Source of the DNA: an uncultured Actinomycetes bacterium | GTDB lineage: Bacteria > Actinomycetota > Thermoleophilia > RBG-16-64-13 | Assembly (NCBI GenBank): GCA_963714175.1 | Contig: CAVQNN010000011.1 | Span: 111,686-175,685 of the forward strand | Direction of reading: 5' to 3' | DNA length: 64,000 nt | Shown here: in pieces, positions 7,393-48,618 of the stretch | Numbering within the stretch: the first letter of the stretch is position 1 | How the letters are laid out: each line of letters starts with the position of its first letter | Notes under the pieces: model-generated | Database searches by the model: none | What the model was told of the DNA's origin: nothing | Seen by the model: only the letters and a program-made list of their open reading frames with translations | Program-made: the position numbers and the translations under genes

Positions 7393-8707
7393 CCCGAGCG
7401 GACCAGACGCAGGCGCGGCCTCACCATCCGCCTCAAGCTGACTCTCTGGTACGGCGGCCTGTTCATTCTGGCGGGCGTGCTTCTCATCGCCATCAACTTC
7501 TTCATGGTCCGCGACAGTCTTTCCGTAGCGCCCTCGAAGGCCCGTGCCGAGGTGGCCGAGCAATTCGGCATCGATCCGGAGTTGCTGGAGATGGAGCACG
7601 ATTTCGGGGGGCCCGGCTTCCCCGGAGGACCCGGGGGTTACGAGCAGTACATCTACAGCGAGGAGGAAGACCAGTACATCCCCACCTCCCGCCTCATCGC
7701 CGAGGCCCAGCGGGAACTCAAAGAAGAGGCACTCCGCCAGCTCTGGACCAGGTCGTTGCTGGCTCTGTGCATCATGACGGTGATCACCTTTGGCTTGGCC
7801 TGGCTGTTGGCCGGCCGCATGTTGCGACCGCTGCATGCAATAACCGGGACTGCGCGCAGACTGTCGGGATCGACCCTCCACGAGCGCATCGCCCTGAAGG
7901 GCCCACGTGATGAGCTGAAAGAACTGGCCGACACTTTCGACGACATGCTCAGCCGTCTGGACTCGGCCTTCACCGCGCAGAAGGAATTCGTGGCCAACGC
8001 CTCGCACGAGCTTCGGACCCCTCTCACCATCATCCGCACCGAGATCGACGTGGCTCTCAGCGACCCTGACCCCGCCCCCGAGGACCTACAGGAGATGGGG
8101 GCGGCCATTACTGATGCGGTGGACAGAAGCGAGAGACTCATCGACGGCCTGCTGGTGTTGGCCAGCGCGGAGAACTCCCCCACCATGGTCGACGTCGATC
8201 TGGCGGAGATAGCGGAAGGCGAGGTCGGTCGCTCCTCGGCCCAGGCCGAGTCACTGAATCTGCGTCTGGAACTCGACTTGCAGTCCGCGCTGGTGAAAGG
8301 CGAGAAGTCCCTCCTTGAGCGCCTGGTCGGGAATCTGGTGGACAACGCCGTGCGTCACAACTGCCCAGATGGCTGGTTCTCGGTCAAGACCTGGTCTGCC
8401 GCCGACAAGGCCGTCCTGGAGGTGGCCAACGGAGGCCCGGTGGTCCCGCCGAGAGGATCTCGACCGGCTGTTCGACCGCTTCTACCGGCCGGACAAGTCG
8501 CGCAGCCGAAAGACCGGCGGCTTCGGCCTGGGACTGTCCATAGTCAAGTCGGTCGCGGCCGCGCACGGAGGCTCGGTCGATCTCCAGGCTCCCGAGGGCG
8601 GCGGCCTGTGCGTTACCGTCACCCTCCCGGCCGCGCCTAGAAGCCAAGCTCAGGGGCCGGCTGCACCTGCGGCTCCTCCACAGGCTCCGACCCCGGCTGC
8701 TCCGTAG
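7391..8707 (+). CDS. sensor histidine kinase (HAMP + HisKA + HATPase_c) with apparent frameshifts
   Basis: ATG at 7391 overlaps the RR stop (ATGA). It has an N-terminal TM region (GLTIRLKLTLWYGGLFILAG), a HAMP domain, the H-box ASHELRTPL and an N-box LVDNAVRHN. The G-boxes (GGFGLGLSIVK) lie in the shifted frame 8315..8707. Frame switches are near 7400 and 8445. Confidence 0.75.
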
Positions 8708-16099: not shown

Positions 16100-16339
16100 G
16101 GCGTGCCATCTTTGACGGCGTGAAGCCGTGAGTGCGTTCCTCGACACGCGCAGCCCTTGTTTTCGTTGTGTCCGAGGTCGATTGGTTGGTGCTATGCTTG
16201 GGTATATGGTCCTTCGGCACTGGAATGGGATTTCGATGGACGGGGGGGCGTAGACACCGCGCTCAAAGCTTCAAACAATCCGTTTCCAGAGTGGATGTCG
16301 ATTCGCTTTCACTAGTACACGGAATGGGAGGTCGGAAGC
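16100..16339 (+). promoter_or_regulatory. putative promoter and long 5' leader of SLH gene A
   Basis: 433-bp non-coding gap. A TTGACG -35-like hexamer lies at 16112-16117. There is a GGGAGG RBS before the ATG at 16340. S-layer genes typically have long leaders. Confidence 0.3.
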
Positions 16340-19300
16340 ATGAAGAGAAAGACGGTCCTGCTACTGCTGGTTCTGGGGGTTGCGATAGGAGTCCTTGTCG
16401 CCCCAGGGGTGGCCCTGGCGAGTTGGTCGGATATCAGCGACGCTGCCTGGGTCTCGCAATACGGAGTCACCGCGGCTCAGGTGGACACGGTGGCCGATGG
16501 CTACCCAGATGGGACTTTCAAACCAAGTGCTCAGGTGACACGGGGTCAGTTCACGAAGATGGCTGTGAACGGCCTCGGCGTGCCTGTTCTGTCGCCTTTG
16601 ACTCCCACCTTCTCCGACGTGCCGCGCACCCACATCTTCTACACCCACATCGAGGGAGCCAATGCGGCCGGGCTCGTGAACGGCGTTGGCGGGGGCCTCT
16701 TCACTCCGAGCGCGCCTATCTCTCGTCAGCAAGTGGCGACCATTCTGGCCCGCTGGCTTTCGGAAGCGGAACTTGACGCGCTTGGCTACATCGCCGGTCC
16801 GGCAGGTACACAGTACCCGAGTCTGAGCGCCTGGTATGCGGCTCAGGGCGCGACGGCGCTTGCGTCGTTCTTCGACCAAGCGAGCATCGCTACCGTTCAC
16901 AGGCCGGGAGTGGCCTACCTCGCCGCCAGAGGCATAGCTCAGGGCTCCAGCGGCTACTTCACTCCGATGTCTAACATCACGCGGGCGCAGGCCGCCGTGC
17001 TGGTACTGCGCGTTCTGGACGAGTCCGATGACTTCGCCGTTCTCACCCCCACGGTCACCGATGTCAATCCTGACAACGGTCCTGCCACAGGCGGCACCAC
17101 GGTGGTCATAACCGGCACCAACTTCACGGCCGGCGCGACCGTCAAGTTCGGGGCCGTTAGCGCTACCGGTGTGGATGGTCGACAGCGCGACGCAGATCAC
17201 GGCCGTCTCACCCGCCGGCACCGCCGGCACCACGGTGCAGGTCGCGGTAACCACCGGGGCCGGCACCAGTGCCAACACAGCGGCCGACAACTTCACCTAC
17301 AACGACGGCCCAACGGTCACCATCAACCAGGCGGCGTCTCAGGCCGACCCGACTCATACGTCGCCCATCAACTTCACCGTCGTGTTCAGCGAGACAGTCA
17401 CTGACTTCGCCACCGGCGACGTGACTATCACCGGTACCGCTCCCGGGACGTTGGTCGGAACCGTCACGGGTTCCGGCAAGACCTACAACGTGGCCGTCAG
17501 CGGGATGACTGGGAGTGGAACGGTGATCGCCTCGATCGCCGCGGGCAAGGCGCATAACGCAGCCGGCAAGCCAAATGTCGCCTCGACCTCGACCGACCAC
17601 ACCGTCACGTACGACGCCGGCCCAACGGTAACCATCAACCAGGCCTCGGGTCAGGACGACCCGACCCATACGTCGCCCATCGACTTCACCGTGGTCTTCA
17701 GTACGACGGTGACCGACTTCGACGACAAAGCTGACGTGACGATTACCGGCACCGCCGGCGGGACGAAGACGGTGGACCATCACCGGCTCCGGCAAGACCT
17801 ACAACGTGGCCGTGAGTGGGATGACCACGGACGGCACAGTGATCGCCTCGATCCCCGCCGGTGTGGCGAAGGACGCTTCCTCCAACACGAACGCCGCCTC
17901 CACGTCGACCGACCATACGGTTACCTGGACTCAGACCGGCCCGGTCATCACCTCGCTCACTGATTCCGCCGGCGGCGCTACCGAGAACAACACGGTGACT
18001 ATCAAAGGCACCGGCTTCGGCAACGACGAGGACGAAATAACGGTCATGTTCGGTGCCGTTGAGGCCCTGGTAGAGGATGTCAACAGTTCGGGCACGACAC
18101 TCGAGGTGGAAGCTCCCGACGGCGTGAACCACACCGTGGTGGACGTTCGGGTCATCACCGACGAGGGCACGAGCCCCAACACGCAGGCCGACGACTATGC
18201 CTACGGCGAGCCGGTGCTCACCTCTCTGGTACCCGCCTCAGGTGATACGACTGGCGGCAACAAGACGATCATTACCGGCACAGGCTTCACCGCCGACGCG
18301 AGGGTCTACTTCGACGGCGACCAGGTAAGCAGCTCCAAGGTCTCGGTCGACAGTCCTACCAAGATCACGGTGGTGGTACCGGCCGGCACCGGCACCGACC
18401 AAGTCACAGTCAGGAACGATCAAGGCTTGAGCAACGAGCTGGACTACGACTACGACGCCGATGCTCCCTACATCACCTCTCTCAGCAAGAACGCGGGGGT
18501 CGCTGGGGGCGGCAATACGATAACCATCAACGGCGGCAACTTCATAACCGCCGGGCTCGAGGTTTGGTTCGGAAGCGAACAGGTGCCCTCTGGCGACCTG
18601 ACGCGGAACAGCTCCACCAAACTCACCGTGGAAGTGCCGGGTGGTACCGCTGGTACAACGGTGGACGTCCAGGTCGTCACGGATGACGGCACCAGCCCAG
18701 ACACCCCGGCCGACGACTACGCCTACGGCAAGCCGACCATCACGGGACTTGATCCTGATGTCGGCGATCCTCTCGGCGGCACCGTGGTGATCATCACCGG
18801 CACCGGTTTCACCCTCGATTCGACTGTCACCTTCGGTGGCGTTTCGGCCGAGGTCGTGTCGGTCAACGCCACCAACACCCAACTCACGGTGATCGCCCCC
18901 GAGGGCGACGACGGTGACACGGTGGACGTCAGAGGTCACGAACGACGCGGGCACAACACCGACCCAGCGACGACGACTTCACCTATGACGCGGACTACAT
19001 CCGTCCCGACCGTTAGGCCCTCAGACCCGGACAGGGGCCCATGGCAGGCGGCACCGCGGTGACCATCACCGGCACGAACTTCTTCGACGGATCGACGGTC
19101 AAGTTCGGGACGAAGTCGGCCACGAGACGTCGTGGTGGTCAATGAGAACACCATCACCTGCGACGTCGCCGTCCGTACGCGCCGCCACAACATGCAGGTC
19201 AAGGTCACGAACGTCTACGGCTACAGCGTGAACATCTCGGCCGACAACTTCACCTACATCGCCGGCCCGACGGTCACCATCAATCAGGCCGTGGCCCAGG

Positions 19301-20876
19301 CCGATCCGACCGGCTGCGTCGCCGATCAACTTCACCGTGGTCTTCAGCGAGTCGGTGGCCGACTTCGCCACCGGTGACGTGACACTCACCGGCACCGCTG
19401 AGCGCGACCACCGCGACCGTCACGCCGGCTGGTCGCGGCACCACCTACAACGTGGCCGTGAGCGGGATGACCGGAGACGGCACGGTGATCGCTTCGATCG
19501 CCGCGGGTGTGGCGCACAACGGCGCGGCACAGGCGAATGCGGCCTCCACCTCGGACGACCACACCGTTACCTACAACAACGTCGGCCCAACGGTCACCAT
19601 CAATCAGGCCGTGGGGCAAGCTGATCCGACGGCTGGGTCGACTATCAACTTCACCGTGGTGTTCAGCGAGTCGGTACTCGACTTCGCCACCGGTGATGTG
19701 ACACTCAGCGGAGGTGCCGGAGCGACGACCGCGACCGTGACTGGTTCCGGCACCATCTACAACGTAGCCGTGACCGGGATGACCACGGATGGCACGGTCA
19801 TCGCCACGATCGGCGCAGGTGTGGCCCACAACGGAGCCGCGCAGGCCAACGCCGCCTCCTCCTCGACCGACAACACCGTCACCCGCGACACCACCGGTCC
19901 GACGGTCACCATCAATCAGGCTGTGGGCCAGGCCGACCCCACCAGCGCGTCGCCCATCAACTTCACCGTGGTGTTCAACGAGTCGGTGGCCGACTTCGCG
20001 GCGGCTGACGTGACGCTGGGCGGTACCGCCGGAGCGACGACCGCAATAGTCACCGGATCCGGCACTACCTACAACGTGGCCGTGAGTGGGATGGATACCG
20101 ACGGCACGGTCACTGCTTCGATTGCCGCTGGGGTTGCACATGACACCGCCGGCAACGCTAGCGGCGGCTCGACCTCAACCGACAACGAGGTCACCTGGAG
20201 CGACCCCGCTCCTACGGCCACTGTCGACGAAGCGGTGGGCCAACTCGATCCGACCAGCGATCCGGAGATCCTCTTCACAGTGGTCTTCAGTGAACCGGTC
20301 ACGGGCCTTGCTGCCGGCGACTTCAACGTTGGAGGCTCGGCGGCCAGCTCGGTCACAAATGTCGCCGGATCTGGTGCGACATACACGGTCACCGTGACCG
20401 CCACCAGTGCGGGCACCGTGACTCTTGACCTGCCTGGTGGCACGGTGGTTGACCTGGGCGGAAAAGCCAACACGGCTGCGACCCCCATCGACAACAGCGT
20501 CACTGAAATCCTTATGGGCGCTGACGTCGACACCGCCCAGTACAAGCTGGGCAACGCCGGAACCTGGACAGCCTTCCCCGGCGTCCAGACCCAGTTCTCC
20601 GCCACCTACGTCAGCGACACCGACCTGCGTGTGAGAGTGCTGGATCAGTTTGGCGACCCACTCCTCAGCACCAATGTCTCGGCGGTGTTTCCCCGCTATG
20701 AGCGAGCGGAAGTCCTCATTCCCCTCGTGAAGACGGTCATTGCGCCTGACAGCACTACTACCGATGGCGCGGGTTACCTCTACTGGAGCAACCAAGGCAC
20801 CGCCGGCGCCATGTACTACTTCGTCCGGCTGGGCTTGGATCTCGACGGCGTCCTCGGAGTGTTCGATGCCATCTGA
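16340..20876 (+). CDS. giant S-layer/cell-surface protein A: signal peptide, 3 SLH, IPT/TIG domains and about 106-aa Ig-like tandem repeats (about 1500 aa, multiple apparent frameshifts)
   Basis: The chain of ORFs 16340.., 17169.., 17806.., 19132.., 19452..20876 shares one domain logic. The N-terminus is MKRKTVLLLLVLGVAIGVLVAPGVALASWSDISDAAW and the SLH motifs match copy C. There are TIG motifs (TVVITGTNFTAGATVKFG) and repeats GPTVTINQA-x-QADPT…FTVVFSE…YNVAVSGMT-x-DGTVIASIAAGVA. The C-terminal domain is shared with copies B and C. Confidence 0.8.
17290..20530 (+). repeat. coding tandem repeats (period about 318 bp, about 106 aa; at least 6 copies in two blocks) inside SLH gene A
   Basis: Near-identical DNA blocks begin ggcccaacggtcaccatcaa(c/t)cagg… at about 17290, 17626, 19265, 19583, 19899 and 20210. 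They are interrupted by an IPT/TIG block at about 17800-19130. Confidence 0.6.
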
Positions 20877-20981: not shown

Positions 20982-21013
20982 AAGAGGCCCGCTCCGGCGG
21001 GCCCCTTTCCTTT
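20982..21013 (+). terminator. rho-independent terminator after SLH gene A
   Basis: GAGGCCCGC-TCCG-GCGGGCCCC hairpin followed by a TTTCCTTT tract. Confidence 0.7.
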
Positions 21014-21139
21014 GCCGGGCGTGTCGCGCCGGCGGGTGGCGCGGAACCTCAGGCGGCTTCGCTCTGTCTGAGCCTTGTGCGCCCGGACGCAGGGTTACCC
21101 ATGAGCAGGGCTTTGTGCGCCGGCGTCGAAGCGGTTTTG

Positions 21140-21299
21140 AACGAGGGTCACCGTTCTTGACGCTCGCCTTATGCGCTTCTGCGTAGTGTGACCGGGCGAC
21201 CGTGACCCTATGGTTCTTGCCTGCACAAACCGACGCGATGCGGGAATCGCTGCTGCTACCCGGGTAGCACTGCGGGAAATGGAAGAGGAGGAAGCGAGT
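21140..21299 (+). promoter_or_regulatory. putative promoter/leader of SLH gene B (shares a conserved leader motif with gene C)
   Basis: TTGACG at 21157-21162. The conserved leader ctgcgggaatcgctgctgctacccgggtagcactgcgg contains the palindrome GCTACCCGGGTAGC. A GAGGAGG RBS precedes the ATG. Confidence 0.3.
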
Positions 21300-24200
21300 A
21301 TGAAGAAGAAGTCAATCCTGCTTATGTTAGTTGTGGGAGTCGTGTTCGCACTGTTCGTGGCTCCCAGCGTGGCTCTGGCGAACACATGGACGGACATCAC
21401 CGACGCCCAGTGGGTCGAGATGTACGGAGTCACGGCAGCTCAAGTGGACACGGTCGCCGATGGGTATGGCGACGGGACTTTCGGCCCCGGCAATCAAGTG
21501 ACCCGCGGCCAGTTCACCAAGATGTCCGTCAACGGTCTGGACGTAGCTGCAGAAGACGCCGGCTTCGCCCACCTTCACAGATGTGCCCACGAGCAACATC
21601 TTCTACTCTTACATCGAGGGAGCGGCGGCGGCCGGGCTCGTCAATGGAACCGGCAGCGGCAAGTTCAGCCCAAATTCGGCGATCAGCCGTCAGAACGTGG
21701 CCGCGATCTTGGGCCGCTGGCTCTCGCAAGCCGAATTGGACGCGCGTGGCTACCTGGTCGGTGCCACCGGGACCCACTACGCGAGCATCGACGCCTGGTT
21801 CGCGGCTGAGGGCACGGCGCAGTTGGCGATCTTCACCGACAGAGTCGTCCGTCAGCGAGAAGATGAAGCCCTGGGTGGCCTACCTCGCGTATCTGGGCAT
21901 ATCCAAGGGCTCCAACGGCCTCTTCAGCCCGGCCTCCAACATCACCCGGGCGCAAGCAGCGGTGCTGATTCTGCGCACGCTTGACGTTGGCAAGAGCTTC
22001 GGGGCAACAGTCCCAACTGTCACCTCCATCAACCCGACCACCGGCGCAGCCGCGGGTGGCACCGTGGTGCTCATCACCGGCACCAACTTCACCTCCGACG
22101 CAACGGTCAAGTTCGGCACGAAGGCCGCCACCAATGTGACCTTCAACAGCGCGACCCAGATCAGCGGCGACTTCGCCCGCCGGCACAGCCAACACGACGG
22201 TGCAGGTCTCGGTCACAACCACGGCCGGCACCAGCGCCAACACGGCGGCGGATGACTTCACCTACGGGAGCGCGGTACCGACTGTCACCGCTCTCGGCAA
22301 GAGCGGCGGGGCCCGCCGCGGGTGGCATGAGGTGACCATCACCGGCACCAACTTCACCTCCGACGCAACGGTCAAGTTCGGCACTGTCGCCGCAACCAGC
22401 GTGACCTACACGAGCGCGACCAAACTCACGGCGGTCGCCCCCGCCGGGACCGAAGGCAGCACGGTAGACGTCCTGGTCACTACCCCGGTTGGCACCAGTA
22501 CCAACACCTCCGCAGACAACTACGCCTACGGCAAGCCCGTTGTCAGCTCGATCAGCCCGGTGACCGGACCCGTCGCGGGTGGTACCTCGGTGACCATCAA
22601 CGGCACCGGCTTCACCGATGACGCAACCGTCATGTTCGGCCCAACGAACGTGACGTCGGCCAATGTAACGGTGGACAGCCCCACGAAGATCACGGCGAAG
22701 TCCCCGGTCGGCACTGCCGGCAAGATGGTGCAGGTCTCGGTCACGAACGATGCGGGCACCAGCGCCGACACCACCAATGACAACTTCACCTACGCGGGGA
22801 CCGGTCCCAGCATCTCCTCCCTCACCCCATCCGCGGGCGACTCCGGCGGCGGCGACGAGGTGGTCATCAAGGGCGTCAACTTCCCCACCGACGACGATGA
22901 CGAGCTGACGATCTACTTCGGCACCAAGTTGGTCGACCCCGACGACATCGAGCTCGACACCGCCACGCAGATGACCGTGGAGAGCGCGCCCGCGCCGGTG
23001 GCGGAGTACACGGTGGTCGACGTTTCCATCGTCACCGAGGACGGCACCAGCGCGAACACTTCCGCTGACGACTACAGCTACGGCGAGCCGGTCATCACAT
23101 CGATCAGTCCCGAACTTCGGCGACCCCGCGGGCGGATACAACATGATCATCACCGGCACGGGATTCACCGCCGATGCGAAGGTCTTCTGGGATGGCGACG
23201 CGTTGGCCAGCTGCGCAAGTTCACGGTCAACGGTCCGACTCAGATCACGGTGGTCGTTCCCGCCGGCGACGACGGCGACTCGATCGATGTGATGGTCGAG
23301 AACGACGAGGACGAAAGCAACGAGGAGGAGTTCGAGTACGACGAGGATCTGCCGTATATCACCTCCATCAGCCCAACCGCGGGCGACTCGGATGGCGGCG
23401 ATACGGTGACATCAACGGCACCAACTTCCCCGCGTCGGATGAGGACGACGTGCACGGTCTACTTCGGCACCGAACGGTAGACGAGGACGACTCACCTCGA
23501 CAACTACCACCAAGATCGTGGTCAAGGCGCCCGCACCCGTCGAGGCCGACGACGACACCACCGAGGTGGTCGACGTCACGGTCGAGACCGACGAGGGCGA
23601 AAGCCCGGACACGCCCGCCGACGACTACAGCTACGGCAGGGCCACGAGTCGAATCCATCGAACCGAACACCGGCGATCCCGCCGGCGGCACCGTGGTGAC
23701 CATCACCGGCACCGGCTTCGTGAAGGGCGTCTCGGTCTACTTCGACTCGACTCTGGTGGACACGAGCAATGTCACGGTGGTCAGCCCCACGAGATCCGAG
23801 TGTCGCCCCCGCGGGTGACTGACGGCGACGACGCTGCGAGTCAAGGTCAAGAACGCCGAGGGCACCAGCGCCGACGGTGACAGCGACGACGACGAGTTCA
23901 CCTACGACGACGACTACGACGCCCCGATCGTACGAGCGGATCACTCCCGACGAGCGGTCGTTGCTGCCGGCGGCACGGAGGTGACCATCAGCGGAAGCAA
24001 CTTCACGATCGGCGCCAGACGTCTACTTCGGATCTACCCAGGCGACTGACGTGGACCTACGTCAGCTCCACTGAGCTGACAGGCCATCGCGCCCGTCGGC
24101 ACCGAGGGCAAGAAGGTGCACGTCAAGGTCAAGGTCGGCGACAATACCAGCGACACGGACTACGACACTGACGCCTTCACCTACGTCGCGGATGCTGACC

Positions 24201-24784
24201 CCATCATCCGATCTCGATCGGCGCAGCCCGGCCTACGGTCCGATCAAGCGGTGGCAATACCGTGGTCATCATCGGCACCGGTTTCAGCAGCAAGCCAACG
24301 GTCAAGTATCGGTGCGGCAGGACGGTGTCGTCCGTCGGAAACGTGAAGTCGATAGCACCACGCAGCTCGAGTGATCGTTCCGGCGCTTGCTCCGCGGACC
24401 GCCGAAGACGGGTAACGTCTCCGTCACCAACACCGAGGACACCGACATTCTCGAAGATGACGCTTACACCTACTTCACCGTCAACGTCGAGTACTCGGAC
24501 GGACAACGGCATGAACCTGGACGGAGTTCACGGTGACACCTTGGAGCAGCGGACACGAGATCGATCTCCGGCTCCAAGTGCTCGACGGAGACGGCGACCC
24601 GATCGACCAGCACGAATCTCTCGGCCTGCAATCCCCTGCTCTACTGGTACAAGTCGTCCACGGACAAGTGACACCAAGGCCGCACAAAGCGCTTACGACC
24701 GACTCCGATGGCTACCTCTACTGGAACGATTTCGGCGGGTTCACGGGCAAAACCTACACGGTGTGGGTAGGGTTTGACCTGTGA
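21300..24784 (+). CDS. giant S-layer/cell-surface protein B: signal peptide, 3 SLH, about 10 IPT/TIG domains and the shared C-terminal domain (at least 10 apparent frameshifts)
   Basis: The N-terminus MKKKSILLMLVVGVVFALFVAPSVALANTWTDITDAQW… is nearly identical to copy C. Domain order is co-linear with copy C, but the reading frame hops among ORFs 21210.., 21583.., 21386.., 22200.., 23174.., 23518.. …24533..24784. Confidence 0.75.
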
Positions 24785-24892
24785 ACGACAGCGATACCGC
24801 TCGACCAGCGCCGACTGTCTACGAAGTAAGTCTCTGTGATCTGGGCAGCAGCTAGCGGCACACCGGTCCCAAGCGACCACATAGCAACGACG

Positions 24893-24924
24893 AAAGAGGC
24901 CCGCTCCGGCGGGCCTCTTTGTTT
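24893..24924 (+). terminator. rho-independent terminator after SLH gene B
   Basis: AAAGAGGCCCGC-TCCG-GCGGGCCTCTTT hairpin followed by GTTT. Confidence 0.75.
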
Positions 24925-25039
24925 GCCGGGTCTCCCGGAGCCCGTTCCACACCCTTCCGCACTCCTTCCGCGCTTGCGCCGCGCGAGCCCTTCCGAGACT
25001 CCCCGCCACGTCGAGCCCCTGGCGTCCTTGTACAGGGCT

Positions 25040-25220
25040 TTCCCTCTTGACGTCGAAGCGTTTCTCGAACGGGGTTCGCCGTCTCTGGCGTTCGCTCGCG
25101 CTCTTGTGCGTAGGACGGCCTGGCCGTGGAGCTACACGGCGGTCGTGCTCGCATGCCCATGAACTGCGGGAATCAATGCTGCTTCAGCGGTAGCGCTGCG
25201 TTGAATAGGAGGATTCAGGC
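25040..25220 (+). promoter_or_regulatory. putative promoter/leader of SLH gene C
   Basis: TTGACG at 25047-25052. The conserved leader tgcgggaatcaatgctgcttcagcggtagcgctgcg and an AGGAGG RBS precede the ATG. Confidence 0.3.
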
Positions 25221-28200
25221 ATGAAGAAGAGATCGATCTTGCTGCTGTTGGTCTTGGGAGTGGTCGCTGTACTGCTCGTAGCGCCCAGTGTGGCCCTGGC
25301 GGACACATGGACCGACATAGCCGATGCCCAATGGCAGTCGCTGTATGGAGTCACCGCGGTTCGGGTCGACTCGGTCGCCGACGGCTACCCCGATCACACC
25401 TTCCGTCCGACCAACCAGGTGACCCGTGCCCAGTTCACCAAGATGGCGGTGAACGGCTTGGGGGTAGCTCAGAAGACGCCGGCTGCGCCCACCTTCTCCG
25501 ACGTGCTGAAAAGCAACATCTTCTACTCCTACATCGAGGGTGCGGCAAGCGCCGGGCTCGTCAACGGAACCGGGGCCAACAAGTTCAGCCCCAACTCGGC
25601 CATCACGCGCCAGAACGTAGCCGCTATCCTGGCGCGCTGGTTGTCGGAGACCGAACGGGATGCGCGTGGCTTCATAGCCGGCGCGACCGGGACGCACTAC
25701 GCCAGTTTCGACGCCTGGTATGCAGGTGAAGGCGCGACGGAGTTGGCGGCATTCACCGATTCCTCGTCCATCAGCAGCAAGATGCGTCCCTATGTGGCCT
25801 ATCTCGCCGCCCGCGGCATCGCCAAGGGCTCCGACGGCCGCTTCAGCCCGGGCTCCAACATCACCCGGGCACAGGCCGCCGTGCTGATTCTGCGCACGCT
25901 GGATGCGGGCTCAGGCTTCGAAACGGCGGTTCCCACCGTCACCTCCGTAAACCCGAACACCGGTCCGGCCTCGGGCGGCACATCGGTGGTCATCACCGGC
26001 ACCAATTTCGCAGCCGATGCCACGGTCAAATTCGGGGGCGCGAGCGCCAGCGGCGTGACCGTCAACAGCGCCACGCAGATCACCGCGACCTCGCCTCCCG
26101 GCACCGCCAACGCGAAGGTACAGGTCTCGGTCACTACCTCGGCCGGCACCAGCGCCAATACGGCAGGGGATGACTTCACTTACGGCAGCCCGTTGCCCAC
26201 CGTCACCGCTCTCAGTCCGTCGGCCGGCGCAGCCGCGGGCGGCGAGCTGGTGACCATCACCGGCGCCAATTTCACCTCGGGTGCGACGGTCAAGTTCGGC
26301 ACCACCGCGGTACCAGCCGCCGATGTGACCTACACGAGCGCCACGGAACTCAAGGCCTATGCTCCCGAGGGCACCCCCAACACCACGGTGCAAGTCTCGG
26401 TCACGACCACGGAAGGCACCAGCGCTGACACCTCAGCAGACAACTACGCCTACGGCAAGCCGGTCGTCAGCTCGATCAGCCCCGCGACCGGACCAGCCGC
26501 GGGCGGCACCACGGTGACGATCAACGGCAGCGGTTTCACCGACGACGTCACGGTCAAGTTCGGCCTCACCACGGTGACCGCGGCCAATCTCACTGTGAAC
26601 AGCCCCACCAAGATCACGGCCAAATCGCCGGCCGGTACCGCCGGCACCAAGGTTCAGGTCTCGGTCACGAACGACGAGGGCACCAGCTCCGACACCATCA
26701 ACGACAACTTCACCTACGCGGGGACCGGCCCCAGTATTTCCTCTCTCACCCCGTCCGCCGGACATGCCGGCGGAGGTGACGAGGTGGTCATCCAAGGCAC
26801 CAACTTCCCCACCGATGAGAACGCCGATCTGGCGGTCTACTTCGGAACGGTGAAGGTCGACTCCAGCGACATCACGCTCGACTCCGCCACGCGGATGACG
26901 ATAGAGGGCGCCCCTGCGCAAGCGGCAGGCATCAAGGTGGTCGACGTCTCCATCGCCACTGACGGAGGCAGCAGCCTCAACACCCCTGCTGACGACTACA
27001 GCTACGGCGCCCCGGTCATCACGGCCATCACCCCGGCGGCCGGCCTGCCCGTGGGCGGGTACAAGATGGTCATCACCGGCACCGGATTCACCGCCGACAC
27101 CAAGGTCTACTGGGACCGTGACGCGCTGGCCGCTGCGAAGTTCACAATCGACAACCCCACCCAGATCACGTTGGTCGTTCCCGCGGGCGACGATGATGAC
27201 TCAGTGGAGGTGACCGTCGAGAACGATGAGGGCGAGAGCAACGTCATGGAGTTCGAGTATGACGAGGATCGGCCCTACATCACCTCTATCAGCCCGAACG
27301 CGGGCAACTACCTGGGCGGTGGTTCGGTGACCGTCAAGGGCATCAACTTCCCCACCGAGAAAGAGGATGTGACGGTCAAGTTCGGGACCAAGGCGGTCCC
27401 AACGACGGACATCACGTCGATCACCGCTACTCAGATCGTGGTGAAGGCGCCTGCGCCCCTGCTGGCCAGTGCCGACATCACGGAGGTGGCGGACATCTCG
27501 GTGCAGAGCGACGACGGTACCAGCCCCAACACGCCCGCCGATGACTACAGCTACGGCCGAGCCAGGGTCAAATCGATCGAGCCGAACGCCGGGCATCCCG
27601 AGGGCGGCGCCGTGGTGACCGTTGTCGGTCAGGGCTTCGTGGACGGCGTGTTGGTCCACTTCGGCACCACCCAGGTGCCCTACGGCAACATCACGGTAGT
27701 CAGCCCCACGCAGATCCGCGTGCTCGCACCTCCGGGTGACGACGGCGACAAGGTGCGGGTCAAGGTCACCAACGCCGACGGCGCGAGTATCGAGACCGAG
27801 AGCGTAGACGACGAATACCTCTACGACAGCGAGTACAACGCTCCTGTGGTCACGAGCATATCTCCGGACACCGGCCTGGCCGCCGGTGGCGCGGAGGTCA
27901 CGATCCTCGGGAAGAACTTCACCATCGGCGCCGAGGTCCGCTTTGGAGAGAGTGAGGCGACCGATGTGGAATATGTCGACTCCACCAAGCTCGTCGCGAC
28001 CTCACCGGCCGGCCCCGAGGGCAAGAAGGTGCACGTGGTGGTCGTAGTCGGAAACATGACCAGCGATGCGGAATTCGACACGGACGGCTTCACCTACGCC
28101 GCGGATGGTGATCCCATCATCACGGGTCTCAACGGCTCAGCGGAAGCCTATGGACCCAAGACCGGGGGCAACACTCTGATCATCACCGGCACCGGCTTCA

Positions 28201-28757
28201 GCAGCGAACCGACCGTCAAGATCGGCACCAGGACGGTGGACAGCGACAATGTGACGCTCAACAGCGCCACGCAGCTTTCCGTCATCGTCCCGGGCGTCGC
28301 CACCGTTGCCACCTACGACGTCAAAGTGACGAACACCCAGGACGACTACACCGTCGAGGACGCATACACGTACTTCACCATGGAGGTCGAGTACTTCTAC
28401 GGGACCAGTATCGGGCAGGCCGGGACGTGGCTACCCCTGGCCAACGAGCACTGGGCGCCAGCGGCGGTGACCAACATCCGGCTAAGGGTGGTCGACCAGG
28501 ATGGCGACGCTCTCGGCAACATAGATCTCTCGCACAGCTTCCCCCTGCTCTACTACTACAAGTCGGACTCTGACAAGGGCACGGTGGACCCGATCCAGGA
28601 TAAGACTGACATCCAGGGCTATCTCCACTGGCCCAGCTTCGGTGGGTCGTTCGCGGGCAAGAGCTACAGCCTGTCCCTCGGATTCGATGTGGACAACAAT
28701 GGCACCCTCACCGATGCCGACTACCGCAGAACCGTCTCGTGGGTCTGGGACATCTAG
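25221..28757 (+). CDS. giant S-layer/cell-surface protein C: signal peptide, 3 SLH, about 10 IPT/TIG domains and C-terminal domain (intact, 1178 aa)
   Basis: Single uninterrupted ORF with a signal peptide. SLH motifs: FSDV…IEGAASAGLVNG, …RQNVAAILARWL, …RAQAAVLILRTL. TIG repeats: PxxTSxSPxxGxxxGGTxVTIxGxxF…VxFG. The C-terminal 120 aa are homologous to the A and B tails. Confidence 0.9.
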   Translation: MKKRSILLLLVLGVVAVLLVAPSVALADTWTDIADAQWQSLYGVTAVRVDSVADGYPDHTFRPTNQVTRAQFTKMAVNGLGVAQKTPAAPTFSDVLKSNIFYSYIEGAASAGLVNGTGANKFSPNSAITRQNVAAILARWLSETERDARGFIAGATGTHYASFDAWYAGEGATELAAFTDSSSISSKMRPYVAYLAARGIAKGSDGRFSPGSNITRAQAAVLILRTLDAGSGFETAVPTVTSVNPNTGPASGGTSVVITGTNFAADATVKFGGASASGVTVNSATQITATSPPGTANAKVQVSVTTSAGTSANTAGDDFTYGSPLPTVTALSPSAGAAAGGELVTITGANFTSGATVKFGTTAVPAADVTYTSATELKAYAPEGTPNTTVQVSVTTTEGTSADTSADNYAYGKPVVSSISPATGPAAGGTTVTINGSGFTDDVTVKFGLTTVTAANLTVNSPTKITAKSPAGTAGTKVQVSVTNDEGTSSDTINDNFTYAGTGPSISSLTPSAGHAGGGDEVVIQGTNFPTDENADLAVYFGTVKVDSSDITLDSATRMTIEGAPAQAAGIKVVDVSIATDGGSSLNTPADDYSYGAPVITAITPAAGLPVGGYKMVITGTGFTADTKVYWDRDALAAAKFTIDNPTQITLVVPAGDDDDSVEVTVENDEGESNVMEFEYDEDRPYITSISPNAGNYLGGGSVTVKGINFPTEKEDVTVKFGTKAVPTTDITSITATQIVVKAPAPLLASADITEVADISVQSDDGTSPNTPADDYSYGRARVKSIEPNAGHPEGGAVVTVVGQGFVDGVLVHFGTTQVPYGNITVVSPTQIRVLAPPGDDGDKVRVKVTNADGASIETESVDDEYLYDSEYNAPVVTSISPDTGLAAGGAEVTILGKNFTIGAEVRFGESEATDVEYVDSTKLVATSPAGPEGKKVHVVVVVGNMTSDAEFDTDGFTYAADGDPIITGLNGSAEAYGPKTGGNTLIITGTGFSSEPTVKIGTRTVDSDNVTLNSATQLSVIVPGVATVATYDVKVTNTQDDYTVEDAYTYFTMEVEYFYGTSIGQAGTWLPLANEHWAPAAVTNIRLRVVDQDGDALGNIDLSHSFPLLYYYKSDSDKGTVDPIQDKTDIQGYLHWPSFGGSFAGKSYSLSLGFDVDNNGTLTDADYRRTVSWVWDI

Positions 28758-28789: not shown

Positions 28790-28827
28790 AAACCAGAGAG
28801 GCCCGCTTCGGCGGGCCTCTCTGGTTT
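28790..28827. terminator. strong bidirectional hairpin terminator between convergent SLH gene C and the minus-strand cluster
   Basis: Perfect palindrome AAACCAGAGAGGCCCGC-TTCG-GCGGGCCTCTCTGGTTT, followed by T-rich sequence on both strands. Confidence 0.8.
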
Positions 28828-29293: not shown

Positions 29294-29974
29294 CTAACTC
29301 TGCGTCGTGCCGCTGTCCGGCGGGGCAGCTTGCGGCGGCACTGCGCCGGTCACTGCATCGGCCGGAGCCGGACTCGGCTGGGCACCCACTGTCGGCGCGC
29401 CGGCAGGCGTTGGCATGTACGGTGGCGGACTGATGGGCGGGCTAGGTGGCGGACTCATGGCGGCTGCAGCCGCAGTCGAGGCCGGGGACAGGTAGGTCTC
29501 GGTGCCGCAGTAAGGGCAGCGGACCAAGCCTTTCCCGGCCAGCTCCACCTGACCGCCGCAGTTGGGGCAGCTACCCTCCTTGATCTGAGCGGCCTCAGCC
29601 GATACCAATTCGCCCTTCTCCCAGTTCACATACCCTCTGAAGAGGTCCTTGCCGATGAGGTCATAGACGTAGGCCTTGACCTGCTCGCGGGTCAGGTTGC
29701 ATTCGATGGCCAGATCGGCGACCCCCACCCGTCCCCGGGTCATCACCGCGTTGAGGATGGTCCGCTCCTTGTCCGCCTCGCTCTCGGCCTTGATCTCTCC
29801 CTTCGAGGCCAACAACAGGTAGAGCCCCACGGCCACGAACGGCAGCGAGAACAACACCAGACCCAGGACATATCCTGCCTTGCTCCCAGTCGCCTCGGTC
29901 AGGCCGACCACCAGCCAGGCGGCGACTCCCAGACCGACGATGATCAGCACGATCCCGAGAATCCTGGTCCGCAT
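29294..29974 (-). CDS. membrane protein with cytoplasmic wHTH-like segment and zinc ribbon; Pro-rich C-terminus
   Basis: 226 aa with two N-terminal TM helices and CPNCGG…CPYCG. Confidence 0.75.
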   Translation of the reverse strand: MRTRILGIVLIIVGLGVAAWLVVGLTEATGSKAGYVLGLVLFSLPFVAVGLYLLLASKGEIKAESEADKERTILNAVMTRGRVGVADLAIECNLTREQVKAYVYDLIGKDLFRGYVNWEKGELVSAEAAQIKEGSCPNCGGQVELAGKGLVRCPYCGTETYLSPASTAAAAAMSPPPSPPISPPPYMPTPAGAPTVGAQPSPAPADAVTGAVPPQAAPPDSGTTQS

Positions 29975-30056
29975 CGTTTCCTCCTGGTTGCTCTGCTATC
30001 GCTACAGCCGACGCCCGGCCCGCGGGGCCGGGCGCCGGTATGGATTCGCTCTCCAC

Positions 30057-31908
30057 CTATCCTGCGCGGAAGCCGCCTCCGCCGCCTCCGCCGGAGAAGC
30101 CTCCCCCGAAACCGCCGCCGCCACCGGAAAATCCGCCGCCACCGAAGGCACCGCGCTTGCCGCCGCCGCTGGACGACGGGACCGAGGTCAGGGCGCTGGA
30201 CATGTTGCTCAGGCTGCTGAACAGACCGTCGGATATGCTCTCGAGGCTGAAGCCTCCTCCAGACGATCCACCGGCATTGGTGAGACCGCCGCCCAGACCT
30301 CCTCCAAGACCGCCCGTGGCGACCGGTCCGGAGCCTCCCGGGAAGGGAATGATCACCGGCGGATGATACCAATCGGGAGAAGAAACGGTCAGGCTTTCGA
30401 AACGCCTCACCCAATCCTTCTCCACGCCGAAAGCGATGGCATAGGGCAGGTACTTCTCGAAGCTCTCCTTCGCCGTCTCCATCTCCTGGAACCGGGTGAG
30501 ATCCTTGAGGTAGTTGCGGAACGCCTCGCACTTGCGCTGCTCCTGGGCGCCTTTGGGCGTCCGCTGCGGCATGCGAGGCGCAAACACCCATACGATGATC
30601 ACAGACACGATCGAACCGAACATGAACCAACCCCACCCGGAGATGTCGGCCATGGCCATGATGACCGTCAGAAGCCCGAGGATGACCGCGACGACGAAAC
30701 CATAGCCTACCCAGCGCTCCCGGGCCTTCTTGGGATTGCTGAAGAACAGCTTGCGACTCGTCACGTCTTCGTAGACCTGATTGACGATCGGCTCGACGTG
30801 CGTGTAGAAGTGGTTCTTCAGTTCGGCGGTCGTGACCTGGTCGGGGTGCTTCGCGTCGAAGAGGGACTCCGCGACCTTCTTCTCGAAGCCCTGCAGATCG
30901 TCGAGCGCCTTCCGGCGCGTGAAGATGGTCACCGCTTTGCGTGCTGCTCCCTCTTTCGCCGTGTCGGTGATCTCGATGTAGCCACGCCGGGCCAGGTCGA
31001 CGATGGTGGCGATCACCTCTTTGGTGTCGACCTTCTCGTCGATGAGCGCTCCGGCCAGACCCGGAGACAGATCCGCGGGAGGCTCGGCTCGCGTACTTGG
31101 CGTAGACCGCCGCCGGCTCATCGCGCCCACGCCGGCGCCAGATCAAGAGCATGCCGAGGAAGAAGAGAATGGGGAGAAGGAACCCTATCTTGGGTATCAG
31201 GAATTCCGCCAGACGCCGCGCCGTCCACGTGAACTTGACCACGCCCTTGGGGAACCCGGTCACGATCCAGAAGTTGGTGTACGGAGGGATGTCTGAGGCC
31301 TGATACACCATGGTGGAGGCGGCCGGCGAGGTGACGTTCGTCTCCACGCCATATCCGGCCTGGACGGCCTGAGTCATGTCTCTCCGAGGGAACCGATCCC
31401 GGCAGCTTGACGGTGGCCTTGACCGCCCCGATGGGCACCGGGGTGTCGGCGTCGAACACGTACCACCTCAGCTCGTCGCCCTCGTCGCAGAACATGACCA
31501 CGTTCTTGGCCCGATAGTGGATGGTCCAGGTCGACGAGGTGTCGGTGAGGTCGAAGTTCATCTGGATGTAGAGAGTGTCGCCCTCTTTGAAGGTGCTGTA
31601 CGTCCCCGGCGAATCACCCTTGGGTAAGGGGGTACCGTTGGCGTCGCGGACTTCGATGTCGGTGATGCCGCCCGTGTTTTCGGTCGGTATGTCGCGGGCG
31701 ACGAAGTGATAGTTGCCCTCGAAGGTGAAGGTGACCATCTCGTCGACGATCACGTCGCCGTTCTCCTGGACGTCGAGTAGCACGTCCATGTTGTCGATGC
31801 GCCAATCCTTGGCCGCGGCCGAGGCCGTCGGACCGGCGACGCAGCGCCAACAGGGCGCAGGCAAGCGGCCAGGAGCGCGAAGCCCCAGAGGTGACGCCGA
31901 TGGCTCAT
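30057..31908 (-). CDS. DUF2207-family membrane protein with Gly-rich C-terminal tail (at least 3 apparent frameshifts)
   Basis: ATG at 31908 gives a signal-like MSHRRHLWGFALLAAC. The extracellular DUF2207 N-domain lies in frame 31118..32884, the TM plus cytoplasmic part in 29944..31377 and 30057..31130 (LSPGLAGALIDEKVD…DLARRGYIEI), and the tail is (GGGF)n. Confidence 0.7.
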
Positions 31909-33042
31909 TGCTTGTCGCCCTCGGGAGCCTCATCGGCCTTCTCGGCTTGCTGCAGCGCGCTCGAGGCTCCGCCGGAGCCGCGGCCGGAGCCGTCAGGTTC
32001 TGACCGCAGTTGGGGCAGAATTTCGAGCCCGCCGGCAGGGTCGCCTTGCACTTCGGGCACGTCACCGTCGCGGCCAGATTCGCGCCGCAGTTCGGGCAGA
32101 ACTTGCTGCCGTAGGGGATGTCCTGGCTGCAGTTGGGGCAGCGCACCTTGGGCTGCGCTCCACCGGCCATGGCCTGCTGCAGCATGCCGGGAATCATCAT
32201 GCCCAGGCCGGCGCCGGCGCCCAGGCCCAGACCGGCCGTGGCCGCCGAGCCGATGTCGGTGCCGCCCCCTCCTCCGCTGCCGCCGCCTCCCTTGGCCAGG
32301 TCGCCGATGGCCTGCGCGGCCTTGTACTGGAAGTAGCGGTCCATGCCGCCGACGGCTTCCATGCCGGAACGCTCGTCGATGCGTTTCTGCACGTCCTCGG
32401 GCGGCGAGATGGCGTTGACCAGAAAGTCGACGATCGCCAGGCCGTACTGGGCGAAGTCGTCCCTGATCCGGGCCTTGAGACCGGCGCCCAACTCGTCGAA
32501 GTAGCGCGGCAGATCGAGCACGGAGTCGAGGCTCTCACCCAGGATGTCCGCGAGCCGCCCGATGATCACGCCCCGCAGGAAGTCCTCGATCTGGGCGTTG
32601 GTGTAGATGCCGCGCGTGCCCACGAGCTTGACCACGAACAGCTTGGGATCGGTGATCTGGAAGGTGTAGATGCCGTTGGAGCGCAGTCGGATCATCTTGA
32701 ACTCGGAGTCGCGGAACAAGATGGGCTCGACGGTGCCCCACTTCAGGTCGGTGAAGGTCCGCTTGCTGACGTAGAAGACCTCGCACCGGAAGGGTGTGTC
32801 GCCGTAGAGAGGCGTGGTGAAGATCGACGGTGAGCAGGGGTATGTTCTGCGTGGCCAGGGTGTGCCGGCCCGCGTCGAAGACATCGTAGGCCTTGCCGTC
32901 TCTGAAGAAGACAGCCCATTGGCTCTCGCGCACGATCAACTGGGAACCGAGCTTGAACTCGCCCGAGCCCTGCTCGGGGATGCGATGGGCCATCTCGTTC
33001 GCCTTGTTCGTCAACGTACTCGATGAGATCCATGAGGGCCAT
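31905..33042 (-). CDS. SPFH/band-7 domain protein of the COG4260 type with C-terminal double zinc ribbon (apparent frameshifts)
   Basis: The start MALMDLIEYVDEQ (ORF 32743..33042) shifts to LIVRESQWAVFFRDGKAYDVF (ORF 32535..33014) and then to the 588-aa frame (…RCPNCSQDIPYGSKFCPNCGANL…CPKCKATLPAGSKFCPNCGQNL). The stop TGA overlaps the DUF2207 ATG. Confidence 0.7.
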
Positions 33043-33137
33043 CGATTACCTCCCAGCTCCGGTGATGAGGTTTTCCCGCTCGGAGAAGCGGGCGTCCAAT
33101 GCTTCGATCCGATCGTCCAGGATACCGATGTCGGCGC

Positions 33138-33563
33138 TCAGCGACGGGCTGCCGACGGCGAGCGCCGCGGCGAGGTCGCGTATGCCCTATCGCTTCTGTC
33201 TCGAGCCCCTGGTCGAACGCGCTGCAGCTCGTCGATCTTCTGCGCGCCCACCTTGGTGGTGTCGAACAGGCCGGCATAGCCGTAGTCGGCGAACTGTATG
33301 CGGTCCCGCACCTTGCGCACTTTGCGCATGATGACGTCGACTTCTCCCAATCCCTCCAGGTTGCCGCTCTTCATGAGGTCGAGCTTCAGTTCGTCCAGCG
33401 TGCCCAGGCAAGAATCGACGTACTCGGCCACGTACACCCGCTCGATCTTGTCGGCCTCCCGCCCCAGTTCCTTCTCCTTGTAGCCCTTGTAGCCGGGGAT
33501 CTTCTCCATCATCCGCTCGAACCAGTTCTTGCTCTCCTCTACCCTGTCATCGATCCCAGCCAT
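33138..33563 (-). CDS. hypothetical charged/coiled cytoplasmic protein
   Basis: 141-aa ORF MAGIDDRVEESKNWFERMMEKIPGYKGYKEKELGREADKIERVYVAEY… It is co-oriented and lies immediately upstream of the SPFH gene. The C-terminus may be frameshifted. Confidence 0.55.
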   Translation of the reverse strand: MAGIDDRVEESKNWFERMMEKIPGYKGYKEKELGREADKIERVYVAEYVDSCLGTLDELKLDLMKSGNLEGLGEVDVIMRKVRKVRDRIQFADYGYAGLFDTTKVGAQKIDELQRVRPGARDRSDRAYATSPRRSPSAARR

Positions 33564-33618
33564 GATCTCCCCTTTGCTCTATGTGACCGATCGAGCCCGC
33601 GCGTCGGGACTTCGGACT

Positions 33619-34306
33619 CTACGCTACCAGACCATCGAACTCGCGCAGCAGCAACCTCCAGTTGGACTCGTGTATGTAGCGAGGATCCCAGACGGCGGGA
33701 ATGAACAGCAGCTCCTCGCCGACCGCCTCGAGCTCGTAGTCGACAGACCGCAGGTCTTTGGCCTCGTGCGATTCGACCGCCAGATAGACGAAGTGTGCCA
33801 GTATCCGGGCATCCCGTCTGCCCACCACCACGGGAGAGAAGGTGCCGAAGCCGGGTCCGGCTGCGTCGCCACTCGATTCGACTCCAAGCCGGCCCCCACG
33901 CAGCATCGGTCTCTGCGCCGCGGCAGGGCCGCTACGAGCCCCGGGGAGAGCTCCAGCATCGGCTGCGCCTCGCGTCAGACTCACCCCCAACCGCTGCACC
34001 ACCGGACGCATCAGCGAGAAGGCGGGGACGTAGAGATAGGCAGGCTCCGGGCGCAGCGACCTTGCGGATGCGCTCCCAGGCGGAGTCGGAGGCCGCGGTC
34101 ACGGAGACAGCCAGACGCCACACCGCCAGATAGTGTACCCCTCCGGCCACGGCCAGCTCAGTGGTCGCTGAAGCGGTCAGGGGGGAGAACGCGGTGAATC
34201 CGTCTTCGCTCGGCTCATGTACCGACCCGCAGTTCGGGCAGATGAAGAGGGCGGCATCGTCACCGCCCTCAAGGGCAAGCCCACAGTTGTCGCAGAGCAG
34301 CGGCAC
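33619..34306 (-). CDS. hypothetical protein with N-terminal zinc ribbon (apparent frameshift)
   Basis: ORF 33932..34306 (MPLLCDNCGLALEGGDDAALFICPNCGSVHEPSEDG…) continues into ORF 33619..34011 in another frame. Confidence 0.55.
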
Positions 34307-34310
34307 CAGA

Positions 34311-35347
34311 TCAGCCGGAGAAAGGTTCGTGGTATTCCACCTCCCCCACCGCGCGGAATCGCCAGATCGACAGTATGCCTATCACAGACACTATCACGGC
34401 TGCGGCCACCATTGAAACGCGGCCCGTCTCCCGGGTGACGGCGAGCAACACGAGAAGGGCGACCACGATGGCCATGGCGACCACCTGCAGCGCCAGAAGC
34501 TGGATGCGCCGCGAGTTGTCGGCCGGAGCGACGGCCGAGTTCACGCTTCCGTCGCGGCCGTTCACCACTACGCGACAGATACGATTCCCGCGATCTGTAG
34601 CGAACCACCCACAGGGGATAGTAGAGGAGCGCGAGTGGATTCCCGGAAGGCGAACAGATGACTGTCGGGAGACGACGCCCCCGAGAGCGGCTGCAAGCGC
34701 CGCCGCCCGCCCTGTCGCCGTTACTTCGCTCGCCGGACCCTTCGGCCTCCAGGACGGTCGCCGCCGGGTCCAGTTCGCCGGCCAGCAGGGGCAACAGAAG
34801 CTCCCGGCCGGTGAAGCGAGGGCGTGTCGCGCCCAGGGCCTCCAGGTCGGTGGCCGCCTGGTAGAAGCGGCGTTCCTGAAGGCGCGGCTCCTTGATCCCC
34901 TTCTTGACCAGCCTGAGTTCCAACCGGCCGCCGCCTTCTTCCTCGTCGAACATCGAGCCAGCCGACCGAGATGCTCGGACGGACAACCTCGGTCTCGGTC
35001 CGCAGGATGTGGCCGAACTCCCACCCCGCCAGCAGCGCCTTGTGCTCCCAGATGGGAGCGAAGATCAGACGGGCATCGACGAAACGCGCGTCACGCGCCC
35101 GCTTGGCGATGCCAGGGTAGTCGCGAAGCCAGGCGGCCCCAGCAGCAGCGGCTTTGAGCCGGTTCACACGCGGGGGAAAGTACCAGCGGGAGAAACCTCC
35201 GTGCTCCTTCACCGCCACGCGCACCCCACAGTGGCGGCAGACGAGGATGCGCCGACCTTCTCGAACGCTCAAAGGACCGGCGCACTGCGAACACTGGACC
35301 GAGTGAAGCACCTCCTCTTCCGGAGCGGACACAGCCTGGGCCGTCAT
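34311..35347 (-). CDS. hypothetical protein with zinc ribbon and C-terminal TM helix (apparent frameshifts)
   Basis: Pieces from three frames: MTAQAVSAPEEEVLHSVQCSQCAGPLSV…CRHCG (34721..35527), MFDEEEGGGRLELRLVKKGIKEPRLQERRFYQAATDLEAL (34177..34986), and the tail …VAAAVIVSVIGILSIWRF…* (34311..35024). Confidence 0.5.
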
Positions 35348-48585: not shown

Positions 48586-48618
48586 CGAGCGTCCTTTCTC
48601 CGAGGCAGAGACCGGCGG

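Follow-up and report, generated by a model that had tools for sequence, protein, structure and literature searches.

Tandem surface-protein paralogs of which apparently only one is intact are found in the antigen variation systems of Neisseria (pilE/pilS), Borrelia (vlsE/vls) and Anaplasma (msp2), and also at the locus described here. In those systems the donors are truncated, lack promoters, and have long flanks identical to those of the expression site, whereas the copies of the present locus are complete and 64–77% identical, and the one that appears “broken” is intact elsewhere. Bacterial pseudogenes carry deletion-biased indels, and the classical errors of nanopore sequencing are homopolymer deletions. 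A second comparison is with the indel errors of long-read (especially nanopore-only) MAGs, which, as here, occur at ∼1 per kb in conserved genes, are absent from independent assemblies, and have a density that tracks local support, in line with the coverage dependence of residual indels in nanopore assemblies (PMC9262707). The likeness is incomplete: in contrast to the classical type, most of the present errors are insertions of a single G or C that lie outside homopolymers, and error density is extremely uneven.

The locus lies in a 64,000-nucleotide stretch of DNA (the window) from an uncultured Gaiellales/Thermoleophilia-like actinobacterium, many close relatives of which come from a nanopore project that employed Flye and one round of Medaka (PMC12313526).

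Results

Anatomy of the Three Copies

On their sequence, copies A, B, and C (all on the + strand) are three separate genes, each predicted to be transcribed and translated on its own, for predicted SLH-anchored IPT/TIG surface proteins. Each retains its own hairpin terminator, a leader of ∼300 nt, a GGAGG ribosome-binding site, an ATG, and a signal peptide. Copy C (25221–28757) is an intact 1178-aa gene with a signal peptide (a hydrophobic N terminus is visible in the translation), three SLH stretches (Pfam, 8.5e-27), nine tandem TIG stretches (3.2e-113), and a C-terminal domain. Copy B consists of a 5′ part (21300–22880), which encodes the signal peptide, three SLH, and the first TIG domains, and a 3′ part (22920–24855, stop TAG at 24853–24855), which encodes the distal TIG domains and the C-terminal domain. 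Copy A (16340–20876) encodes a signal peptide, three SLH, IPT/TIG, Big_12 repeats, and a C-terminal domain, with the Big_12 repeats forming a tandem array of a 312-nt unit (19256–20258, + strand). A hairpin resembling a terminator, GGCCCGCTCCGGCGGGCC with a T-rich tail after it, lies 3′ of copy A (20986–21003), and the same hairpin recurs 3′ of copy B (24898–24915) and copy C (28800–28817), likewise on the + strand. TIG repeat units are common to all three copies.

The SLH region of these proteins matches that of Bacillus anthracis Sap (PDB 3pyw and 6bt4), and the TIG region matches the IPT domains of plexin/Met. The C-terminal domain (∼130 aa) of copy C and of the intact copy B ortholog P0121 gave no Pfam match; P0121 otherwise has, like copy C, a signal peptide, three SLH domains, and nine TIG stretches. 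Searches of the conserved A/B/C leaders against Rfam returned nothing, the sole match being a tRNA at 2592–2663.

Frame Disruptions in Each Copy and across the Window

Frameshifts were counted from frameshift-aware protein-to-DNA alignments, which called none on four intact control pairs at 64–71% identity; a plain global DNA alignment of copies B and C (∼77% identity) was dropped because it produced dozens of spurious gaps. Copy C is a single open reading frame with no frameshift and no gap relative to its ortholog in L104 (93% aa identity), a syntenic relative of 85–92% nucleotide identity, and the DNA alignment with L104 shows no indel event over 25356–28555. Copy B has 26 frameshifts relative to copy C, 31 relative to P0121, and 27 relative to L104 B. 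Copy A has 9 relative to L104 A, nearly all of them +1 insertions; a codon-usage frame model gives 6 net switches for this copy. The first-pass annotation, made from the letters alone, had described copy C as free of disruptions and had put at least 10 frame switches in B and at least 5 in A; the first and last of these hold, and the counts for B are higher than its minimum. Its estimate of roughly 1 disruption per kb elsewhere also agrees with the reference-based background (∼12 frameshifts in 12.4 kb), though this background is strongly uneven along the window.

At 1 per kb, the frameshift excess in copy B is real (P of at least 27 given a mean of 3.55, 2e-15). The values for copy A (P of at least 9 given 4.55, 0.04) and copy C (P of 0 given 3.5, 0.03) are far less extreme, and the absence of errors in copy C is unremarkable for the longest gap between errors among some 50. 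Within copy B the disruptions are concentrated toward the 3′ end: 21300–22900 contains three net shifts, which are private insertions of one nucleotide (C at 21550, G at 21842 and 22166), together with one compensated pair at 22305 (+G) and 22328 (−1), while 22900–24855 contains ∼28 shifts (∼14 per kb). The five example switch points named in the first-pass annotation fall within ∼10 nt of the three private insertions and of shifts at 23112 and 23409.

Frameshifts of the same kind are present in conserved genes of the same contig. RlmKL has at least three and PolX at least one, with PDB matches running across the frame junctions; BirA has one and VanW two; and the gene for a PEP-utilising enzyme has four, all +1, relative to the intact ortholog in MAG RBG_16_64_13. 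The AOR gene (2.2 kb), which is not repetitive, has at least nine frame switches (∼4 per kb), and the 29.5–35 kb region shows 89 indel events relative to L104. Background frame steps in the codon-usage frame model comprise 35 of the +1 type versus 10 of the +2 type. Local error density thus ranges from 0 over 3.5 kb (copy C) to ∼14 per kb (3′ half of copy B).

Indel Signature of Copy B

Relative to P0121, 25 of 31 shifts in copy B are of the insertion type and involve 1–2 nt. The inserted base is G or C in 33 of the 38 one-nucleotide insertions. Homopolymer context, which the first-pass annotation had proposed to count, is lacking at 29 of the 38, a result that rules out homopolymer slippage or phase variation. 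After frame correction, no in-frame stop is found in codons matched to P0121 and L104 B, and nonsense substitutions are absent from them; the mixed-size, deletion-biased indels of a pseudogene are likewise not seen in copy B. Mutagenesis by a diversity-generating retroelement is ruled out: all bases are substituted, with 114 transitions versus 96 transversions and no adenine specificity. The merged translations of the window also show no apparent reverse transcriptase.

Copies in Other Assemblies

P0121 (JGI sample 3300075153) is an intact ortholog of copy B of 1177 aa and falls in the same 90% cluster as fragments of L001, a second assembly in which the P0121 allele recurs at 98.6% aa identity. 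L104 carries intact copies of B (1165 aa) and C (1178 aa) and a copy of A that is broken once. The first-pass annotation had regarded the recovery of single long reading frames as the mark of an artefact, and for copy B such frames are provided by P0121 and L104. An intact ortholog of copy A was also sought, and the sole find was the L104 copy, split into 861 and 614 aa.

Over the 5′ part of copy B the window and L001 differ at 1–2.4% of DNA positions, and neither has the indels of the other; the window insertions at 21550, 21842, 22166, and 22305 are all absent from L001, as are those at 19162, 19173, 19310, and 19400 in copy A. L001 copy B has nine frameshifts of its own, seven of them in the 3′ half, at sites that differ from those of the window, so that lesions are not shared between the two.

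Exact look-ups of the copy C product and of the copy B open reading frame P0001 returned no contig on record. A scan of genome contigs with copy C found no relative, and a scan of metagenome contigs with P0121 found distant relatives only (38–60% identity).

An Allele Boundary within Copy B

Divergence of copy B from the L001/P0121 allele rises from ∼2% to 12–14% at 22860–22920 (+ strand), and the step in error density coincides with this boundary. At the protein level, the window copy is 98–99% identical to P0121 over residues 1–500 and 70–89% identical in the 3′ half. Codon differences between the window and L001 in the 3′ half number 76, 59, and 141 at codon positions 1, 2, and 3, respectively. 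This enrichment at third positions suggests a real allele under selection, with errors superimposed on it, rather than neutral decay. The same comparison gives 94 synonymous and 94 nonsynonymous codons, the latter count being inflated by misalignment near indels, although some of these differences could instead reflect relaxed constraint. Between relatives, copy B evolves fast (71–74% aa identity), in contrast to the conserved copy C (93%). When an undisrupted version of the window-type 3′ allele was sought, the nearest protein was 64% identical.

Discussion

The disruptions in copies B and A are very probably not mutations but heterogeneous long-read consensus errors, worst where coexisting strains differ. 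That they are a sequencing artefact and not pseudogene cassettes is indicated by the intact copies of B in other assemblies. A single error process would act across the whole window at ∼1 per kb, with local densities between 0 and >10 per kb. The 14-fold local excess over background would call for an additional cause, probably strain mixture or low depth, acting on reads from what was presumably a long-read platform. The 3′ half of copy B, which has the highest error density, would be a strain-variable segment whose allele in the window is ∼12% divergent from the one carried by two further assemblies. Over such a stretch, the consensus would be built either from the thin share of strain-specific reads alone or from a mixture of reads of both alleles, and both situations may leave indels in it; copy C, as a conserved paralog, would obtain a clean consensus. 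Among the three causes that the first-pass annotation had entertained, strain heterogeneity collapsed in the assembly therefore appears the best supported, since the errors in B jump where the alleles diverge and those of L001 also fall mostly there.

The consensus of repeats, another of those causes, does not seem to drive the excess. If reads of paralogs C or A had been drawn onto B during consensus building and had corrupted it, sharing of TIG units across the three copies would provide the opportunity, and of the sites at which the window and L001 differ in the 3′ half of B, the window agrees with copy C at 145 and L001 does so at 97. Yet the supposed partner C is error free, the 5′ half of B is as repetitive as the 3′ half and far cleaner, and B and C, with ∼77% DNA identity and exact matches of at most 26 nt, are too dissimilar for long-read mis-mapping. 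Repeats are unlikely to be the main cause because copy C is clean and the non-repetitive AOR gene is error dense, and we regard this explanation as very improbable. The remaining cause, decaying cassettes acting as silent donors, fares worse still. Recombination of A and B into an expressed copy C, generating surface antigen variation as in pilS/pilE or vls, would fit three adjoining tandem surface-protein paralogs with a single intact member in this assembly, as well as an inter-strain recombination boundary inside B. Silent donors would be expected to lack expression signals and a 5′ end, but A and B are full length and each has the complete set from leader to signal peptide, with its own terminator. 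Long identical segments and mosaic forms of the expressed gene are also missing: exact matches to C do not exceed 26 nt in B or 20 nt in A, and C diverges from its L104 ortholog uniformly by 6–8%, without mosaic blocks or indels. With copy B intact in P0121 and L104, and the window indels private, such a role is extremely unlikely.

Decay of copy B need not involve donor function. At least its 3′ half might be a true pseudogene in this strain, a divergent allele gained by recombination and now decaying, with C as the working gene. The ∼14 frameshifts per kb in 22920–24855 against a background of ∼1 per kb, the low identity to P0121 in the 3′ half, the nonsynonymous half of its codon differences, the fast evolution of B between relatives compared with C, and the failure to find an intact window-type allele are all compatible with this reading. 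Against it, the insertion bias matches that of the errors in conserved genes of the window and runs counter to the deletion bias seen in bacterial pseudogenes, nonsense substitutions are absent from matched codons, and differences are concentrated at third positions. Moreover, the 5′ half has five private indels despite 98–99% identity to an intact ortholog, L001 has artefactual frameshifts in the same segment, and stretches of comparable error density occur in AOR and at 29.5–35 kb. We consider a pseudogene quite unlikely. It is also unlikely, if a little less so, that the 3′ half of B is a truly strain-specific allele either inactivated in this strain or too polymorphic in the population for one consensus.

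If consensus error accounts for the disruptions, the underlying biology would be ordinary: a conserved three-gene cluster for SLH/TIG surface proteins, with one conserved member and two fast-evolving ones. The case then urges caution, as what look like “pseudogene cassettes” in long-read MAGs can turn out to be consensus errors concentrated in strain-variable surface-protein genes, and claims of gene decay, phase variation, or antigenic variation from such assemblies require read-level support. Were the 3′ half of B truly strain specific, the locus would instead be a hotspot at which uncultured Gaiellales-like actinobacteria diversify their surface proteins, with the wall anchor and the first TIG domains conserved, the distal domains swappable, and a conserved copy C beside fast-evolving copies A and B. 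The C-terminal architecture of copy A, which is different in another strain, would be a further feature of such a hotspot.

Gene Architecture and Frameshift Counts

The three surface-protein paralogs lie in tandem on the plus strand of the window (GC content ~65%), as copy A (16340-20876), copy B (21300-24855), and copy C (25221-28757). Copy C is a single ORF of 1178 aa, with a product comprising a hydrophobic signal peptide, three SLH domains, nine IPT/TIG stretches, and a C-terminal domain; copy A also encodes Big_12 Ig-like repeats, among them a 312-nt tandem array (19256-20258). Upstream of each copy lies a ~300-nt leader that carries a conserved motif, a GGAGG ribosome-binding site, and ATGAAGAAG; downstream, each is followed by the same GC-rich hairpin with a T-rich tail (20986-21003, 24898-24915, and 28800-28817, respectively, plus strand). 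Since each has its own hairpin, leader, GGAGG, and start, A, B, and C are three complete, separate genes. The leader block shared by all three (GCGGGAATC..TGCTGC, ~45-70 nt 5' of the GGAGG site; leaders at 16240-16340, 21200-21300, and 25120-25220, plus strand) matches no Rfam family and may be a common regulatory element; the only gathering-level Rfam match within the window is a tRNA gene (2592-2663, minus strand). A ~130-aa C-terminal stretch common to the three proteins (..VEY...LRVxDxxGD...GYLYW..; 28350-28757 in C, with equivalents ending A and B) forms a conserved domain at their distal tip and has no match in Pfam.

Frame corrections were counted with a purpose-written, frameshift-aware protein-to-DNA aligner, which gave no frameshifts over four intact control pairs of 64-71% identity. 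The first-pass annotation, which described C as undisrupted and A and B as needing at least five and ten frame switches, was borne out, and its example coordinates in B were right to within ~10 nt: copy C required no corrections and has no indel event across 3.2 kb relative to the DNA of L104, the corresponding syntenic stretch in a related organism; copy A required 9; and copy B required 26 against C, 31 against P0121 (an intact B ortholog), and 27 against the L104 ortholog. At an expectation of 1 per kb, the P values are 2e-15 for the count in B, 0.04 for A, and 0.03 for the zero in C, which is unremarkable as the longest among ~50 error-free intervals. The excess in B is localized, with three net shifts and one compensated pair in 21300-22900 and ~28 shifts in 22900-24855.

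A codon-usage frame model applied to the whole window broke it into many short same-strand segments; frame steps at 50 close junctions outside A-C included 35 of +1 and 10 of +2, a surplus that indicates one-base insertions. PDB matches spanning frame junctions revealed at least three frameshifts in RlmKL and at least one in PolX; comparison with the MAG RBG_16_64_13 revealed four, all +1, in a PEP-utilising enzyme with an intact ortholog there and none in the neighbouring GAPDH-like gene; and comparison with L104 revealed one in BirA and two in VanW. The resulting ~12 frameshifts per 12.4 kb of conserved genes agree with the previously proposed background of roughly 1 per kb. Local rates vary widely. 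The aldehyde:ferredoxin oxidoreductase gene (48183-50408, minus strand), a non-repeat metabolic gene that aligns over its full length with PDB 9mqx_D (residues 8-595), comprises 10 frame segments with 9 junctions, i.e. ~4 switches per kb. On the 3' side of C, 5.5 kb of the window (29459-34983) differs from L104 (17965-23493) by 89 indel events, mostly of 1 nt, at 90% identity, with one-nucleotide extras evenly divided between the two assemblies (45 versus 46).

Independent Versions of Copy B

Searching with the B ORF at 22200-23480 identified a 91%-identical fragment on a 4.8-kb ENA contig (L001), orthologous to window 20982-24627. The 90% cluster of this fragment also includes P0121, which is intact at 1177 aa, comes from a JGI metagenome, and has the SLH/TIG architecture of the window copies; L001 and P0121 are 98.6% identical once frame-corrected. 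L001 has nine frameshifts of its own in B, seven of them in the 3' half. Residues 1-500 of window B share 98-99% identity with P0121, and the DNA here differs from L001 by 1-2.4%; L001 lacks the extra bases that the window has at 21550 (C), 21842 (G), 22166 (G), and 22305 (G), and none of the L001-specific indels in this part occurs in the window. The L104 locus (85-92% nucleotide identity, from a related uncultured actinobacterium) conserves the gene order of window 11122-35000 (BioY-BirA-VanW-FmdE-A-B-C-HTH_1-...-DUF2207-Band_7), with B (1165 aa) and C (1178 aa) intact and A broken only once. The intact B of P0121 and L104, together with the lack of the window indels in L001, imply that the disruptions are private to the window assembly.

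Within B, identity to L001 drops sharply at 22860-22920: the sequence on the 5' side is ~98-99% identical, and that on the 3' side is 12-14% divergent. The boundary resembles a breakpoint of inter-strain recombination that separates the wall-proximal portion of the protein from the distal one. Differences in the 3' half number 76/59/141 at codon positions 1/2/3, and synonymous changes make up half of the altered codons, where we estimate that about a quarter would be expected under a neutral or error process. This third-position skew and synonymous share point to a genuine divergent allele, probably under selection, to which the indels have been added. Insertions account for 25 of the 31 shifts in B. 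Compared with L001, the window has 38 one-nucleotide insertions, 33 of which add a G or C, and a check of homopolymer context, as the first-pass annotation had proposed, placed 29 of the 38 outside homopolymers. No stop codons were found among the matched codons of B after frame correction.

Origin of the Frame Disruptions

The frame disruptions are thus confirmed in the sequence. Counting all variants of this reading together, we consider an artefact very probable: a single process, residual consensus errors in a long-read metagenome assembly, would account for them, with error density set by local read support and worst where co-existing strains differ. The earlier suggestion of collapsed strain heterogeneity corresponds to this account. 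The indel-density step in window B coincides with the allele boundary and the L001 errors cluster in the same 3' segment; strain or depth as the cause is what we infer. Residual nanopore indels are coverage dependent (PMC9262707), many GTDB relatives of the organism come from a nanopore-only project using Flye and one round of Medaka (PMC12313526), and the contig names of L001 and L104 are Flye-style; a long-read, presumably nanopore, platform is likewise suggested for the window itself.

That B is a true pseudogene in this strain is disfavoured. Bacterial pseudogenes have deletion-biased indels, opposite to the insertion bias in B, which matches that of the background; nonsense substitutions are absent, the third-codon-position signal persists, and intact orthologs exist. 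The private indels, intact B orthologs, and complete gene anatomy likewise speak against A and B as decaying cassettes. As silent donors they fail on both anatomy and identity: no exact match to C exceeds 26 nt, and no mosaicism was found in C. Errors arising from repeat-driven cross-talk between the paralogs would find some support in a mild excess of sites at which the window matches C (145, versus 97 at which L001 does). The clean state of C and the error density of non-repeat genes nevertheless make such cross-talk unlikely, and on the same grounds a consensus simply worse in repeats is rejected as the main cause.

Copy C is indel-free in both the window and L104, with error-dense flanks on both sides in both assemblies. 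Between the two organisms, C is 93% identical at the amino acid level, B 74%, and A 67-69%, a pattern that marks C as the conserved paralog and A and B as fast-evolving; the clean state of C may stem from its being the conserved, probably monomorphic, member.

The C-terminal architecture of copy A varies by strain (window 19137-20876 versus L001 1-1189): the window copy ends in ~3 tandem 312-nt Big_12 repeats and a C-like C-terminal domain, whereas that of L001 has one 312-nt-type repeat followed by two unrelated ~110-aa repeats (ASVTTPVDTTIY...). A polysaccharide-deacetylase-like protein with C-terminal SLH domains (8642-9899, minus strand; tblastn match of the C SLH region at 8730-9233) is a putative second SLH-anchored protein near the A-B-C cluster.
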